Shown: positions 6,794 through 11,292 of the stretch, piece after piece | How positions within the stretch are numbered: the stretch's first letter is position 1 | Layout: the number at the start of each line of letters is the position of its first letter | IMG/VR virus record: IMGVR_UViG_2548876860_000007 | From: a virus | Lineage: Duplodnaviria > Heunggongvirae > Uroviricota > Caudoviricetes | DNA length: 11,292 nucleotides | Strand: one strand, 5' to 3' | Notes under the pieces: generated by a model | Told to the model about the DNA's origin: nothing | What the model saw: the letters and a program-made list of their open reading frames with translations, nothing else | Databases searched by the model: none | Program-made: the position numbers and the translations under genes

Positions 6794-6819
6794 ACCCGCT
6801 TCGGCGGGTTTTGTTTTTT
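6794..6819 (+). terminator. Rho-independent terminator at the hok mRNA 3' end
   Basis: Stem ACCCGC ttcg GCGGGT (6794-6809) followed by TTTGTTTTTT (6810-6819). Lies just downstream of the fbi-like element. Confidence 0.6.
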
Positions 6820-6891
6820 CTGGTCGTTCTGGTTTACAATCCATCCGTCAGCCTGAACAACTGGCACCTGCTGCGCCAGCAGAGAAAACAG

Positions 6892-7170
6892 ATGGCGCAC
6901 GATACCAAATTTTACAATTCGGATAACTCTGCCGCCCCTGCCAGCAGGCACGGGCGGCGTTCTCATGCATTCAAATCTGACTGGTATCAGCACGACCCCT
7001 GCACCGAAGAACAGGCTGAATGGCTGATTCAGTATTACCGCAGGCGCGGATACGAGGTTAAGAAAGCCCTCAGTCTCGATTATCGTCACTGGATAATCTC
7101 CGTCAGGCTTCCTTACTCCGAACGCCCACCGCGTCCGTCCCGCACATTCCAGCAACGCATCTGGAGGTAA
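6892..7170 (+). CDS. Hypothetical basic protein (92 aa); position corresponds to rem in the Qin hokD-rem-ydfU arrangement (positional guess)
   Basis: First in-frame start (ATG 6892) downstream of the hok terminator within track ORF 6763..7170. Weak SD. Possible promoter TTGTTT(6811-6816) -18- TACAAT(6835-6840). Confidence 0.45.
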   Translation: MAHDTKFYNSDNSAAPASRHGRRSHAFKSDWYQHDPCTEEQAEWLIQYYRRRGYEVKKALSLDYRHWIISVRLPYSERPPRPSRTFQQRIWR

Positions 7171-7171
7171 C

Positions 7172-8221
7172 GTGCGGGTATTACTTCGACCTGTTCTGGT
7201 ACCGGAACTCGGGCTGGTGATCGTTAAGCCGGGCCGTGAATCCATGCCGGTATTCCACAATACCCGGTTACTGGTGGAGCCGGAACCGAAAAGCATGCGT
7301 AATCTGCCGTCCGGGGTCGTTCCCGCCGTTCGCCAGCCGCTGGTGGAAGACAAAACATTGCTGCCGTTTTTCAGTAACGCACGGGTAATTCGTGCTGCTG
7401 GTGGTGCTGGTGCATTGTCTGACTGGCTGTTGCGCCATATTAAATCCTGCCAGTGGCCACACGGCGATTATCATCACAGCGAAACCGTTATTCACCGATA
7501 TGGTACCGGCGCAATGGTGTTGTGCTGGCACTGCGACAACCAGCTGCGTGACCAGACATCCGAATCACTCGAGCAACTTGCTCATCAAAACCTGTCAGCA
7601 TGGATGATTGACGTCATCGGTCACGCAATAAGCGGTACGCAGGAGCGTGAATTATCTCTGGCTGAATTATCCTGGTGGGCGGTCCGCAATCAGCTGGCGG
7701 ACGCGCTACCGGAAGCGGTATTACGTCGCTCGCTGGGATTACCAGCGGAAAAAATCTGCTCGGTGTACCGCGAAAGCGACATCGTACCGGGAGAGCAGAC
7801 CGCCACCAGCATATTGAAACAGCGCACAAAAAATCTTGCACCGTTGCCTCACGCCCACCAGCAACAGAACCCACCACAGGAAAAGACGGTGGTCAGCATT
7901 GCCGTTGATCCTGAGTCTCCGGAATCTTTCATGAAACGACCTAAACGTCGCCGCTGGGTTAACGAGAAATACACACGCTGGGTGAAGACTCAGCCGTGTG
8001 CGTGTTGTGGTAAGCCAGCCGACGATCCCCATCACCTGATTGGTCATGGTCAGGGCGGAATGGGGACAAAATCTCACGATATTTTCACGCTACCGCTGTG
8101 TCGGGAGCATCACAACGAGCTTCATGCGGATCCGCTGGCGTTCGAAGAAAAGCATGGTTCCCAGATTGATTTAATTTTTCGTTTTCTTGATCACGCCTTT
8201 GCAACCGGCGTGCTCGGGTAA
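7172..8221 (+). CDS. DUF968/YdfU-like prophage protein (349 aa) with C-terminal Cys/His zinc-finger-like motif
   Basis: GTG 7172 with GGAGG SD (7163-7167). C-terminal motif ...QPCACCGKPADDPHHLIGHGQGG...LCREHHNELH... Gene order hok, small gene, this gene mirrors the Qin hokD-rem-ydfU arrangement as recalled. Confidence 0.7.
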   Translation: MRVLLRPVLVPELGLVIVKPGRESMPVFHNTRLLVEPEPKSMRNLPSGVVPAVRQPLVEDKTLLPFFSNARVIRAAGGAGALSDWLLRHIKSCQWPHGDYHHSETVIHRYGTGAMVLCWHCDNQLRDQTSESLEQLAHQNLSAWMIDVIGHAISGTQERELSLAELSWWAVRNQLADALPEAVLRRSLGLPAEKICSVYRESDIVPGEQTATSILKQRTKNLAPLPHAHQQQNPPQEKTVVSIAVDPESPESFMKRPKRRRWVNEKYTRWVKTQPCACCGKPADDPHHLIGHGQGGMGTKSHDIFTLPLCREHHNELHADPLAFEEKHGSQIDLIFRFLDHAFATGVLG

Positions 8222-8233
8222 AAGAGGTTACTG

Positions 8234-8605
8234 ATGCGTATAGAGTTTGTTTTGCTTTACCCGCCGACGGTGAACACCTACTGGCGACGTCGTGGCAGCA
8301 CATATTTTGTATCAAAAGCCGGTGAGCGTTATCGCCGTGATGTGGCGCTTATTGTTCGCCAGCAGCGGCTGAAATTAAGCCTGTCCGGAAGGCTGGCGAT
8401 AAAGATTATTGCCGAGCCACCGGATAAGCGCCGCCGTGACCTGGACAATATTCTGAAAGCACCGCTGGATGCACTGACGCATGCGGGGCTTCTCATAGAC
8501 GACGAGCAGTTTGATGAAATCAATATTGTGCGCGGTCAGCTCGTTCCTGGTGGGCGACTGGGCGTGAAGATTTGCGAAATCAGAGGTGATGGTAATGGGG
8601 CGTGA
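8234..8605 (+). CDS. rusA: RusA Holliday-junction resolvase (123 aa)
   Basis: N-terminus LLYPPTVNTYWRRRG and catalytic-region motif DKRRRDLDNILKAPLDALTHAGLLIDDEQ match the RusA family as recalled. AGAGG SD 8223-8227. Confidence 0.9.
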   Translation: MRIEFVLLYPPTVNTYWRRRGSTYFVSKAGERYRRDVALIVRQQRLKLSLSGRLAIKIIAEPPDKRRRDLDNILKAPLDALTHAGLLIDDEQFDEINIVRGQLVPGGRLGVKICEIRGDGNGA

Positions 8606-8945
8606 TATGTATGAGGTTTTAGATCGCTGGGGGGCATGGGCTGCAGCAGAAAATAGCGGTGTCGATTGGCAACCGATAGCAGCGGGCTTCAAGGGGCTTT
8701 TGCCACATGGCAAAAAGTCACGTCTCCAGTGTGATGATGATGAAGGCATCATGATAGACGGTTGTGTGGCTCGGTTGCGAAAGTATAAACCAGAGGAATA
8801 TGAGCTGCTCATAGCTCACTTTGTTATTGGTGTTTCTCTACGCTCAATCGCGAAGAAACGCAGGTGCTCAGATGGAACTATAAGAAAGGAGCTGCAAACT
8901 GCATTAGGCTTTATTGATGGATGTATATGCTTGATTCTATCATAA
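8595..8945 (+). CDS. Late-gene antiterminator Q, QuuD/phage-82-type (Phage_antitermQ family)
   Basis: MGRDMYEVLDRWGAWAAAENSGVDWQPIAAGFKGL...CDDDEGIMIDGCVARL... parallels the QuuD N-terminus as recalled. GAGGTG SD 8583-8588 favours ATG 8595; alternative starts at GTG 8586, ATG 8589 or ATG 8607. Overlaps the rusA stop. Confidence 0.8.
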   Translation: MGRDMYEVLDRWGAWAAAENSGVDWQPIAAGFKGLLPHGKKSRLQCDDDEGIMIDGCVARLRKYKPEEYELLIAHFVIGVSLRSIAKKRRCSDGTIRKELQTALGFIDGCICLILS

Positions 8946-8958
8946 GTTATGACTGTTA

Positions 8959-9345
8959 CTACTCGTTTGCTTGAGCTTTCGATTCGGCGTCAGATAAAGC
9001 ATCAATACGAATATTTATGTTTTTTAATAGCTTATTGTCTAGAACGATAAGACATTGGTTGTAGTGCGCAATTTGGTCTGGTGTTAGGTTAGGGTTGGCC
9101 AGGCAGTTCGTGATGAATTTTCTGGCCGTTTTTATTTCCCTTTTCATTCTTACATCATTAAGCGTAGGCAAACCTATGTAAGCGATAAGAAGAATTACCA
9201 CATGAGATAAGCCGACAGCAGCTCCAGGCGCCAATGATTTGAAGAAGGCTAATTGAGGAAGCCAGTCAAAAAGGAAATTCAATCCCGCAGTGATAAGGGT
9301 GGTAAACCATGCCTGCATTGCCAGGTAGGATTTAGTGTTCGCCAT
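8959..9345 (-). CDS. Predicted membrane protein (128 aa): two N-terminal TM helices plus charged C-terminal tail; third gene of the reverse operon
   Basis: ATG 9345..9343 directly abuts the upstream TGA (9348..9346). AGGAAGG SD. Hydrophobic stretches YLAMQAWFTTLITAGLNFLF and AAVGLSHVVILLIAYIGL. Stop lies 13 bp from the convergent Q stop. No family recognised. Confidence 0.7.
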   Translation of the reverse strand: MANTKSYLAMQAWFTTLITAGLNFLFDWLPQLAFFKSLAPGAAVGLSHVVILLIAYIGLPTLNDVRMKREIKTARKFITNCLANPNLTPDQIAHYNQCLIVLDNKLLKNINIRIDALSDAESKAQANE

Positions 9346-9591
9346 TCACCTTCCTGCACTTGCTTCGTTGCGAGTTTTGAGTTCGCGTAGCAGTAGCGCC
9401 AACTCTTCTGCGTCATTTTCGTTTCTAACGCTGACTTTCCTTTTAGCGGTTCTGCCTTCAGGATCGGTGTAGGTTAGTTCAATATACGCATTCGGCTTTA
9501 CCCAAACCAAGAACCTAAGCACAGCATATCTGACCGTCGCTGCGACAGCCATGAATACAGTGATGTAAAGCATAATGCTTAGGATTGACAT
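9346..9591 (-). CDS. Predicted small membrane protein (81 aa): one N-terminal TM helix plus charged C-terminal region; second gene of the reverse operon
   Basis: ATG 9591..9589 lies 3 nt after the upstream TAA (9597..9595). SILSIMLYITVFMAVAATVRYAVLRFLVWV hydrophobic segment. No family recognised. Confidence 0.7.
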   Translation of the reverse strand: MSILSIMLYITVFMAVAATVRYAVLRFLVWVKPNAYIELTYTDPEGRTAKRKVSVRNENDAEELALLLRELKTRNEASAGR

Positions 9592-9594
9592 GAT

Positions 9595-10473
9595 TTAAAG
9601 TAGTTTCCTATCTGCCGCCGCTCTGTGGCGTATAACCTTAGTAATACTATAGCGTGGTTTAGACAGCGCGCCATTTGTTTCTTTTGTTGTTTCTGTCAGT
9701 TCTACAACAAAAAGATCACCCTTACAGAATGCTGCTTGGTTGTGTTCAACCCGTTCAAGAAAAGCCTCATCTTTCATAGATGCGCTAACTTCTTCGCCAT
9801 TTGGCAGGATGATATCCCAGCTTTTTCCTTGCTTGAATCGAACATTAGCAAAATGTACATTAGCTTGGCGTGTCGTTACGTGCGTTTTCTCGACAAAGGT
9901 GGATTTTGCAGTTTTAAAACTTACTGCTTCAGCTTGCGTCACCCTGACTACCTTATGCTTCTGCTGTGAAACTGAGAACGTGGATGGTTTTTCAGTCTGC
10001 AGGGGTTTATAGATTAATTTATCCAGTTCTTTTCGGATGATTGGACTGGTTATTAATTTTTGAATGTCGTTACTGCATTTAACCTTCTCACCATCCACTT
10101 CGATTTCTGCTGTATCTTTTTGTTCATCGACGACAATGGAGCTGATTTTACGCCCTTTGAGCCATTCGATTATCCCGAGTACGCCACCTGCGGCAACTCC
10201 ACCACCTGCAACGAGGCCAAGGGCGTTAATAGTTTTTATGCTCCCCATCACAGCAACAAGCAAAGTAAATGAACCTTCTTTTGTTGCCTTGATGTTGACT
10301 TTCGGCTCTGCTGTTTCGCCATTAATTATTTTTTCGGCGTGTTCAATCAGGGCACTAAGAGAGGTTAAGGCTTCGCCTAATGTTTTCGCGTCGATCTGAT
10401 TATCTGCGTATGCCTCTCCACCGTAGGCAATTTCGATTTCTGTTATTGGCATGTTTTCGAGTTGCTGCGTCAT
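9595..10473 (-). CDS. Predicted membrane-anchored protein (292 aa from ATG 10473; 303 aa from GTG 10506) with glycine-zipper TM helix and ~190-aa C-terminal domain of unknown function; first gene of the reverse operon
   Basis: Track ORF 9595..10506. ATG 10473 preferred because AAGGA lies 8 nt upstream. Hydrophobic glycine-rich helix INALGLVAGGGVAAGGVLGII flanked by charged regions. No family recognised. Confidence 0.7.
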   Translation of the reverse strand: MTQQLENMPITEIEIAYGGEAYADNQIDAKTLGEALTSLSALIEHAEKIINGETAEPKVNIKATKEGSFTLLVAVMGSIKTINALGLVAGGGVAAGGVLGIIEWLKGRKISSIVVDEQKDTAEIEVDGEKVKCSNDIQKLITSPIIRKELDKLIYKPLQTEKPSTFSVSQQKHKVVRVTQAEAVSFKTAKSTFVEKTHVTTRQANVHFANVRFKQGKSWDIILPNGEEVSASMKDEAFLERVEHNQAAFCKGDLFVVELTETTKETNGALSKPRYSITKVIRHRAAADRKLL

Positions 10474-10518
10474 CAAAAGCATCCTTTGCGCAAGAGAAAT
10501 AGCCACAGGATACAGATA

Positions 10519-10548
10519 ATTATGAAAAAATCACTAACGCGTACGCAA
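10519..10548 (-). promoter_or_regulatory. Candidate sigma70 promoter of the reverse operon (TTGCGT -18- CATAAT on minus strand)
   Basis: Minus-strand -35 TTGCGT (10548..10543) and -10 CATAAT (10524..10519), about 45 nt upstream of ATG 10473. Confidence 0.35.
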
Positions 10549-10593
10549 AAACTATCTTAATCTGTTAAGAGTGGTCGCTTCGCCACACAGCTT

Positions 10594-10618
10594 AAACCCG
10601 CATCAAGCGGGTTTTTTT
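10594..10618 (+). terminator. Intrinsic terminator on the plus strand in the operon-to-tRNA spacer (possible displaced tR'-like element)
   Basis: Stem AAACCCGC atca AGCGGGTTT followed by a T7 run (10612-10618) on the plus strand. On the minus strand it lacks a U tract. Confidence 0.45.
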
Positions 10619-10700
10619 GTGCCACTTATCTCGGATAGACATGGTGAATGCGCTGGTGGAGGAGATAAGGGTGATTTTTAACCAGGTGATTTTTGAATGC

Positions 10701-10729
10701 TTGCAACATTGATTTCGTAACGTTATTAT
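10701..10729 (+). promoter_or_regulatory. Near-consensus sigma70 promoter directly upstream of the tRNA genes (TTGCAA -17- TATTAT)
   Basis: -35 TTGCAA 10701-10706, 17-bp spacer, -10 TATTAT 10724-10729. The tRNA 5' end at 10739 is about 10 nt downstream. Confidence 0.5.
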
Positions 10730-10738
10730 CCTGCGCCC

Positions 10739-10814
10739 GGCCCTTTAGCTCAGTGGTGAGAGCGAGCGACTCATAATCGCCAGGTCGCTGGTTCAAATCC
10801 AGCAAGGGCCACCA
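10739..10814 (+). tRNA. tRNA with CAT anticodon (Ile2 lysidine-type or Met), ileZ/ileX-like
   Basis: 76-nt cloverleaf folded by hand: acceptor GGCCCTT/AAGGGCC, D-arm GCTC...GAGC, anticodon loop CTCATAA, T-arm GCTGG TTCAAAT CCAGC, encoded CCA end. Confidence 0.9.
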
Positions 10815-10894
10815 ACCGCCACTAGCTCATCAGGAAAGAACGTCACCCTGTGCGAGATTCGGAGTCCCCGGTGGCGGTCCATTATCGGTATTCT

Positions 10895-10971
10895 GCGTTG
10901 TTAGCTCAGCCGGACAGAGCAATTGCCTTCTAAGCAATCGGTCACTGGTTCGAATCCAGTACAACGCACCA
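10895..10971 (+). tRNA. tRNA-Arg (anticodon TCT), argN/argO-like phage tRNA
   Basis: 77-nt cloverleaf: acceptor GCGTTGT/ACAACGC, anticodon stem ATTGC/GCAAT with loop CTTCTAA, T-arm ACTGG TTCGAAT CCAGT, encoded CCA. Confidence 0.9.
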
Positions 10972-10984
10972 CACTTATTTTCCA

Positions 10985-11008
10985 GGCTCGCTTCGGCGGG
11001 CCTTTTTT
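10985..11008 (+). terminator. Rho-independent terminator downstream of the tRNA pair
   Basis: Stem GGCTCGC ttcg GCGGGCC (UUCG loop) followed by TTTTTT (11003-11008). Confidence 0.6.
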
Positions 11009-11140
11009 GTATCTGCGCCACGCCCGGCGCATATCAACCACAGAGCCTTTCGGGGGGGAGCTTACGGAGTGGTCAGTGTGACTTTCTCTGTGGGCAGATC
11101 GCTCCCGGGCGTTGGCTCACCCACCCAAAGGAACGTCACG

Positions 11141-11278
11141 ATGTTTGGTATTTTTGGTAAAAAAGCCCGCCGAGCGGCAGTGGAAATTAAAAAGTTTGAG
11201 AAACGTGATCTGGCACAGGCGGTTATTAATGCTGCCTACCTGGTGGCCTGTGCAGATGGTGAATGTGAGGCTTCCTAG
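11141..11278 (+). CDS. Small ORF (45 aa) ending at an amber codon; possible N-terminal part of a TerB-like protein (tentative)
   Basis: ATG 11141 with AAGGA SD 8 nt upstream (MFGIFGKKARRAAVEIKKFEKRDLAQAVINAAYLVACADGECEAS). The ...LVACADGE... segment resembles the TerB-domain ADG motif. TAG at 11276-11278; the same frame continues KAKI... to the window edge. Confidence 0.35.
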   Translation: MFGIFGKKARRAAVEIKKFEKRDLAQAVINAAYLVACADGECEAS

Positions 11279-11292
11279 AAAGCGAAGATCGA

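Follow-up and report, generated by a model that had tools for sequence, protein, structure and literature searches.

The virus record IMGVR_UViG_2548876860_000007, an 11,292-nucleotide stretch of Caudoviricetes DNA that we refer to in its entirety as the window, carries three small genes, here named A, B, and C, that lie in reverse orientation between the Q antiterminator gene of a lambdoid prophage and a conserved non-coding block. These genes form a mobile, self-contained accessory module that was inserted as a discrete unit into what we call the Q-to-block slot. Our favored explanation, held with roughly even confidence, is that the operon most likely serves an anti-phage function, expressed in the lysogen and acting at the membrane. 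Circumstantial evidence points toward the anti-phage role, namely the match of A to the candidate defense family PDC-S42, the known and candidate defense genes that occupy the same slot in other prophages, and one homologue of the operon adjacent to an AbiE system. A preliminary description of the window, made from the sequence alone, had proposed an undescribed phage-exclusion module at this position, and its overall interpretation is partly supported. Protein A is already catalogued as a defense candidate (in PADLOC-DB, in NCBIfam as NF053583, and in PHROGs), and it is the small partners B and C, neither of which has a PADLOC model, that have been overlooked. New are the obligate grouping of the three genes, the exactly bounded insertion together with its empty site, and the lambdoid Q-to-block slot as a defense-rich hotspot; our literature search found no description of them.

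The locus is defined by the following features (positions in the window):
10473 to 9595, minus strand: gene A, 292 amino acids (the mechanically called open reading frame starts at GTG 10506)
9591 to 9346, minus strand: gene B, 81 amino acids
9345 to 8959, minus strand: gene C, 128 amino acids
8595 to 8945, plus strand: Q antiterminator gene, Pfam Phage_antitermQ (PF06530 family), E = 3.8e-45, the left anchor of the slot
10526 to 10620 (about 95 bp), plus strand: conserved non-coding block, the right anchor of the slot; candidate late promoter or Q-utilization site with leader and terminator
8947 to 8952, junction: left copy of the TTATGA direct repeat, from the empty-site comparison
10520 to 10525, junction: right copy of the TTATGA direct repeat, from the empty-site comparison
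8953 to 10525, minus strand: inserted cassette of 1,573 bp with one repeat copy, containing C, B, A, and their 5′ leader

The three open reading frames (ORFs) and their spacing had been read correctly in the preliminary description, as both the ORF list and the sequence bear out: 3 nt separate A from B, and the stop codon of B directly abuts the start of C (0 nt). A purine-rich motif resembling a Shine-Dalgarno sequence precedes each start. All three proteins match PHROG families (E about 1e-57 to 1e-94, including 8e-57 for B against phrog_27630 and 1.3e-87 for C against phrog_26468), and homologues of the same size occur in the same order in 12 independent genomic contexts, which together indicate that these are real genes and not chance ORFs. 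In the three RefSeq records inspected, B has no annotated coding sequence between C and A. The cassette had been judged by eye to be AT-richer than its flanks, and the computed GC content of 43.3% over 8959-10506, compared with 52.8% to the left (6763-8945) and 52.2% to the right (10600-11292), agrees. The stop codon of Q (protein WP_000532208.1 in the PGAP annotation) ends at 8945 and that of C begins at 8959, so that the genes converge with 13 bp between them; this leaves no space beside Q for a late promoter, as had been remarked, and the non-coding element linked to Q lies beyond the cargo. The cassette is the sole reversed block inside the rightward gene train, but it is not, as first claimed, the only minus-strand coding sequence in the window, because leftward ORFs also lie at 604-1023 and 186-338 (DUF1391). 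An Rfam scan gave no match within the cassette or the conserved non-coding block.

Direct evidence for insertion comes from an empty site. A prophage in strain MS20657 (locus L030) carries a 95%-identical Q and lacks the cassette, and its sequence aligns to window positions 8600-8952 and then directly to 10516-10617; it is this alignment that delimits the insert as 1,573 bp bounded by TTATGA. The full cassette is present at ≥99% identity in 37 of 5,426 complete Escherichia coli genomes, and 276 of 5,426 carry this Q family. The same Q allele adjoins the cassette in three records inspected, the prophage backbones of which differ. In the phage collection the cassette was not found, and A had one distant match, in a Vibrio phage. 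Comparison of the Q-to-tRNA interval across related prophages thus identifies the cassette as an insertion that varies among them and not as a conserved core of the late region. The idea that it is an autonomous accessory unit gains from the empty site, from the other cargo found in the slot, and from the occurrence of the trio in non-lambdoid elements.

The right anchor of the slot is as constant as its cargo is variable. The block at 10526-10620 was kept at 83-91% identity in all eight sampled Q-family prophages, always beyond whatever follows Q, and is the only non-coding element to remain associated with this Q family. Because of that linkage, and because the block ends in a terminator, we infer that it is the late promoter or Q-utilization region with its leader and tR′ (pR′/qut). 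At least eight different types of cargo occupy the slot among the sampled Q-family prophages, nearly all of them reverse-oriented, and include the following:
This A-B-C cassette, reverse, in the prophage of the window
A Dcm methylase with a reverse DUF262/HEPN pair, the DUF262 protein of which matches PADLOC NsnA (5.6e-46) and PD-T4-2_A
A 1,047-amino-acid metallophosphoesterase, reverse, matching PDC-S60 (1.2e-94)
A two-gene PDC-M53 set in two variants, reverse, identified by PADLOC match
A 427-amino-acid protein, reverse (locus L032 5556-6839), no PADLOC match
A TIGR04255-led three-gene set, reverse (locus L033 5369-7096), no PADLOC match
An NdpA-like pair of 382 and 408 amino acids, reverse (locus L035 5336-7707), no PADLOC match

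The forward ArtAB-like toxin pair of MS20657 (L030 5577-6863), a scabin-related ADP-ribosyltransferase and a subtilase-type B subunit, lies directly downstream of the block, not between Q and the block, and forms the first genes of the late operon. In its behavior the slot resembles the P2 and P4 hotspots (Rousset et al. 2022), where a fixed position between phage genes holds interchangeable, often reverse-oriented defense cargo; it differs from them in the type of phage and in its anchors, which here are Q and the promoter/terminator block. Strain 20.1 (L041) has an identical Q-cassette-tRNA stretch; in its nin region (4818-6828), a Dcm methylase and an NgoMIV-family restriction enzyme mark a second place for cargo in this type of prophage.

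The three genes also travel together well outside this slot. Downstream of A homologues with 27-62% identity lie a B of 79-84 amino acids and a C of 117-135 amino acids, joined by tight or overlapping junctions. B follows A in 12 of 12 contexts, and C follows B wherever the contig continues past B; both small proteins are true homologues across contexts and diverge faster than A. The trio was found in these settings:
Another E. coli prophage lineage: in the nin region, sharing its strand with the early genes
An island in Enterobacter: alongside genes for a serine recombinase and a VapE-like protein
Orbaceae and Gilliamella prophages, and Tatumella
A chromosomal islet between core genes: with only a Mor remnant
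A MobA plasmid contig of roughly 6 kb
A Psychromonas island: beside a complete AbiEi/AbiEii pair and an integrase
Mu-like phages (L039 2248-5608; L038 18-3847): between gpG (Phage_tail_S) and the protease/scaffold gene

None of the 12 contexts contains a BREX, DISARM, or type I restriction-modification (RM) locus, AbiE is adjacent in one, and no peptidase gene stands beside A in the contexts examined. The family ranges over Enterobacterales, Orbales (bee-gut Gilliamella), Psychromonas, and environmental metagenomes; a scan of genome contigs for it returned three loci. In L038, the same Mu-like position also holds a reverse-oriented HSDR_N-domain protein.

Protein A belongs to a large family of 2,917 clusters at 50% identity, nearly all of them 280-320 amino acids long. 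Along its full length it matches the PADLOC family PDC-S42 (models PDLC05015-17; E = 3.3e-53 with PDLC05015, where residues 22-299 of the 303-amino-acid form fall on profile positions 4-294 of 302), as do all 142 diverse relatives tested. PDC-S42 is the only PADLOC family that A, B, or C matches. PDC families were compiled by taking genes found inside BREX, DISARM, or type I RM loci (Payne et al., bioRxiv 10.1101/2024.01.29.577857), and PDC-S42 is filed there as a single-gene candidate, whereas here A is accompanied by B and C. In NCBIfam, A scores 225.3 bits (cutoff 60) with NF053583, named "LAPAL motif-containing putative phage structural protein," a label that probably reflects the Mu-like context. 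An AlphaFold2 model of A built with the 142-sequence alignment is compact and globular (mean predicted local distance difference test score [pLDDT] 93, predicted template modeling score [pTM] 0.86), with an N-terminal α/β domain and a β-rich C-terminal half that contains a barrel resembling an oligonucleotide/oligosaccharide-binding (OB) fold. Residues 70-105 are a moderately hydrophobic Gly/Ala/Ser-rich stretch that is conserved across the family and modeled as strand-helix-Gly-loop-helix. Judging from the model, A is probably not an integral membrane protein; the earlier proposal that all three products are membrane proteins holds for B and C by hydropathy and fails for A, given its confident globular model.

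No catalytic motif was found among the conserved residues of A, and neither an enzymatic domain nor a solved structural relative was found for its family. Likewise, no characterized homologue, whether from a defense or a non-defense module, was found for A, B, or C. Two further family assignments for A were considered. DUF7946 (PF25678; threshold 27 bits) is matched weakly by 58 of the 142 relatives over their N-terminal ~180 residues (best E = 2e-8), all examined relatives fall below the cutoff, and A of the window has no match; the hits to the N-terminal half of relatives, consistent though sub-threshold, are uninformative because the DUF has no literature. Homology to EACC1 (PF19953) was rejected on scores of 15.6 against 23.6 bits, on the small number of relatives at E < 1 (5 of 142), and on the lack of an adjacent protease gene, which leaves an analogy only.

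Both small partners look like membrane proteins. B has one N-terminal hydrophobic helix (hydropathy peak 2.18), followed by a conserved K/F-P ... D-x-x-G β-hairpin and a short helix. C has one strong hydrophobic peak in the hydropathy scan (residues 41-59, 2.12) ahead of a helical, charged C-terminal tail, and a weaker N-terminal hydrophobic stretch (about residues 9-34) that was read by eye and lies below the scan threshold. The positive charges that follow the hydrophobic helices suggest, by the positive-inside rule, that the soluble parts of both proteins face the cytoplasm. C has no match in Pfam, PADLOC, or PDB, and B matches no characterized family. The possibility that B is a paralogue of the central unit of A was rejected, as hhalign placed B 19-58 on A 93-128 in the expected register at a non-significant probability of 2.5%; a comparison of C with A found no similarity.

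How the cassette might be expressed is suggested by the edge of the block, where comparison of loci disclosed a candidate leftward promoter:
10519 to 10548, minus strand: −35 TTGCGT (10548-10543), 18-nt spacer, −10 CATAAT (10524-10519)

The preliminary description had given the operon a candidate promoter of its own, and a strict consensus scan found none on the minus strand upstream of A; it is the locus comparison that restores the idea with TTGCGT-18-CATAAT. Most of the other cargo loci examined have this TTGCGT at a distance of 17-18 nt from a hexamer resembling a −10 (TACAAT, TATAAT, TATACT, TATGCT, or TAAACT, read by eye from printed sequences); the hexamer is weak in L032 (TATTTT), none is convincing in L033 or L036, and the empty site has only CATAAC. 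The arrangement is a plausible leftward promoter for the cargo. A transcript predicted to start near 10512 favors ATG 10473 over GTG 10506 as the start of A. A promoter-like site in the 3′ end of Q (8914-8943) was also considered as the late promoter and set aside in favor of the conserved block, since it is shared only by the window and the nearest relative, is missing from six other Q-family loci, and is within the chance expectation of the scan. Loci L032, L033, and L034 have a GC-rich hairpin right after the Q stop codon that resembles a bidirectional terminator, and the window has none at its convergent junction.

The remaining features lie to either side of the cassette:
10594 to 10614, plus strand: intrinsic terminator hairpin, AAACCCGC...GCGGGTTT followed by a T-run, candidate tR′, found by terminator scan
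10739 to 10971, plus strand: tRNA genes with anticodon CAU (Met by ARAGORN, Ile by PGAP) and Arg-UCU

The folding window 10565-10625, which contains the hairpin, has a free energy of −20 kcal/mol, and across five loci the stem is conserved and the loop variable. A mosaic joint falls at 10594-10620: its left side matches prophages of the same Q family, and from 10594 rightward the similarity is to phages whose Q is of another kind (PF06323 type), among them vB_EcoM-606R7 and PPompW prophages. Just past the terminator, a Chi site (GCTGGTGG) at 10653-10660 is invariant in five of five aligned lambdoid loci despite diverging surroundings. RefSeq annotates a 36-amino-acid "antiterminator" ORF at 10571-10681, across the hairpin and the Chi site, which is probably spurious. 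From 11069 onward, after the tRNAs, lies a TerB-family gene with an internal stop, which RefSeq treats as a pseudogene. On the far side of Q, a hok/sok type I toxin-antitoxin locus occupies 6400-6724 (Rfam sok, 114.9 bits at 6400-6574; Hok-family ORF within 6512-6724).

We propose that these parts would work together as follows. The cassette would be transcribed leftward, probably from the promoter at the right edge of the slot, a direction and position that would allow expression in the lysogen and would be opposed by rightward phage transcription after induction. A would act as a non-enzymatic cytoplasmic sensor or regulator, with its OB-like β-barrel domains and its glycine-rich hydrophobic segment, and B and C, as small inner-membrane proteins, would form the membrane-acting part. 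Upon infection, an A-B-C assembly may compromise the inner membrane, so that the infection is aborted or a membrane-dependent step is blocked.

The logic proposed for the trio is that of RexA/RexB of phage lambda, in which a lysogen-expressed cytoplasmic protein of ~280 amino acids is paired with a small inner-membrane partner and is thought to act on membrane potential. The resemblance ends with the logic: the preliminary description had set the trio apart from RexA/RexB and from holins, endolysins, and spanins, and rightly so, as it has neither sequence nor fold similarity to the Rex proteins, RexB is one protein with four transmembrane (TM) segments in place of two small proteins of one or two helices, and the position in the prophage differs. 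Nor does any member match a holin, endolysin, or spanin family in Pfam or PHROG; this prophage has its lysis genes downstream, encoded on the opposite strand, and the Orbaceae locus is the only one with putative lysis genes adjacent to the trio.

Two other systems offer closer parallels to single parts of A. EACC1 has a hydrophobic helix with a small/glycine patch followed by β-strands, and the weak Pfam match covers that part of A (residues 81-140), in the hydrophobic stretch and the hairpin after it. The comparison is of interest in that EACC1 shows how a protein that is not an enzyme can carry a segment with latent membrane activity (Kaur et al. 2020, PMC7159879; Evans et al. 2025, bioRxiv 10.1101/2025.11.14.688446); A differs in scoring below threshold, in being three times larger, and in having no adjacent protease gene in any context. 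The second is the "HP + 4TMs" cassette (Rousset et al. 2022, PMC9122126, Table S2B, pFR87), the HP of which shares the N-terminal ~75-residue domain of the A family (hhalign probability 85%, E = 6e-6). As with A, a soluble protein is paired with a membrane protein, in this case in the cargo hotspot of P4 satellites; the rest of HP is unrelated to A, and a single four-TM partner stands in place of B and C. Rst_3HP, a validated system of the P2 hotspot, was also considered and appears unrelated, judging by size and not by sequences: its three proteins, at ~230-370 amino acids each by eye in Table S2A, contrast with the small B and C, and the trio has no PADLOC Rst match.

A more far-reaching version of this mechanism, which we put forward tentatively and regard as somewhat unlikely, is that A-B-C represents an unrecognized, widespread class of non-enzymatic abortive infection, in which an OB-fold sensor with a latent glycine-rich membrane segment acts with two obligate membrane partners. 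Sensing of a phage would then lead to joint membrane collapse, a protease-independent counterpart of gasdermin/EACC1 logic, and the trio would be housed in a lambdoid "Q-to-late-promoter" defense hotspot.

Several observations weigh against a membrane-acting defense operon. PDC-S42 is a candidate class whose defense role would rest on genomic association, and a literature search on PDC-S42, LAPAL, DUF7946, and the protein accessions found no papers. "HP + 4TMs" is among the "additional tested systems" of Rousset et al. and not among the validated ones (PMC9122126). The association with hotspots and defense islands is suggestive, and the MS20657 site also has an ArtAB-like toxin. The soluble model of A is well packed, and its hydrophobic segment may simply be core or interface. 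The trio shares its orientation with structural or lysis genes in the Mu-like phages and in the Orbaceae prophage, an arrangement that fits a role in the phage cycle as well. Finally, neither the terminator scan nor folding found a minus-strand terminator after C, so cassette transcripts may run antisense into Q.

Among the alternatives, superinfection exclusion without cell death comes closest to the anti-phage reading, and we judge it unlikely. In a Sie- or Imm-like manner, B and C in the membrane, with A docked onto them, would block genome entry or an early membrane-dependent step of infection without setting off abortive membrane collapse, which suits two small inner-membrane proteins from a prophage cassette that is presumably expressed in the lysogen, the lack of an enzymatic domain, and the wide occurrence of the trio in temperate phages. 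By hydropathy and charge, however, B and C would expose almost nothing to the periplasm, and A, the largest and best conserved of the three, is a cytoplasmic protein with OB-like domains, better suited to intracellular sensing than to a passive block; the trio is also found on plasmids, in chromosomal islets, and next to an abortive-infection system.

An addiction module of the toxin-antitoxin type, in which one or both small membrane proteins are toxic and A or the other small protein neutralizes them, seems to us quite unlikely. Such a cassette would persist through the penalty on its loss, whether or not it affected phages. The operon is compact and tightly coupled, it occurs on the ~6-kb MobA plasmid contig and, accompanied by no more than a Mor remnant, in the chromosomal islet, many known toxins are small hydrophobic proteins, and hok/sok lies in the same window. 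Against this, A exceeds typical antitoxins by far in size and conservation, the two small proteins diverge faster than A, and no toxin-antitoxin family is matched in Pfam or PADLOC.

Lysogenic conversion unrelated to phages, by a membrane module affecting the physiology of the host envelope, its stress tolerance, or its virulence, is more doubtful still. It draws on the toxins and other conversion genes carried in the Q-to-lysis interval, the ArtAB-like toxin of MS20657 among them, and on the presence of the cassette in E. coli isolated from humans and animals; the trio shows neither a secretion signal nor a recognized virulence domain, and the spread of the family over Enterobacterales, Orbales, Psychromonas, and metagenomes argues against a virulence role specific to one host niche.

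Least probable of all is a function in the phage cycle itself, whether in lysis timing (holin/antiholin-like), in morphogenesis, or as a structural component, since the NCBIfam name of A, the co-orientation with head genes of the Mu-like trio between gpG and the protease/scaffold gene, and the Orbaceae trio just upstream of putative same-strand lysis genes (a membrane protein, a transglycosylase-like and a spanin-like protein, read from translations) are set against a cassette that runs opposite to the late operon, is missing in a close relative whose Q region otherwise matches, lies in the early nin region of another E. coli lineage, also occurs on a plasmid and in islets without any phage genes (contexts that together argue against A as a virion structural protein), and has no holin or structural match in Pfam or PHROG beyond the NF053583 name. 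We also count the Mu-like location against it, as the Mu G-I position is an accessory-gene slot, in which anti-CRISPR loci are found in Pseudomonas Mu-like phages.

Returning to the anti-phage reading, the organization of the locus has consequences for how such prophages are understood and mined. Cargo can wedge between Q and its apparent cognate late control region, and the Q-to-block slot is a well-delimited place in which to look for systems, with at least three cargo types there matching nothing. That the 81-amino-acid B was overlooked illustrates how gaps in the annotation of small ORFs distort defense catalogues. If the trio does defend its host, a "single-gene" family of ~2,900 clusters would become a three-component, membrane-linked system with no enzymatic domain.

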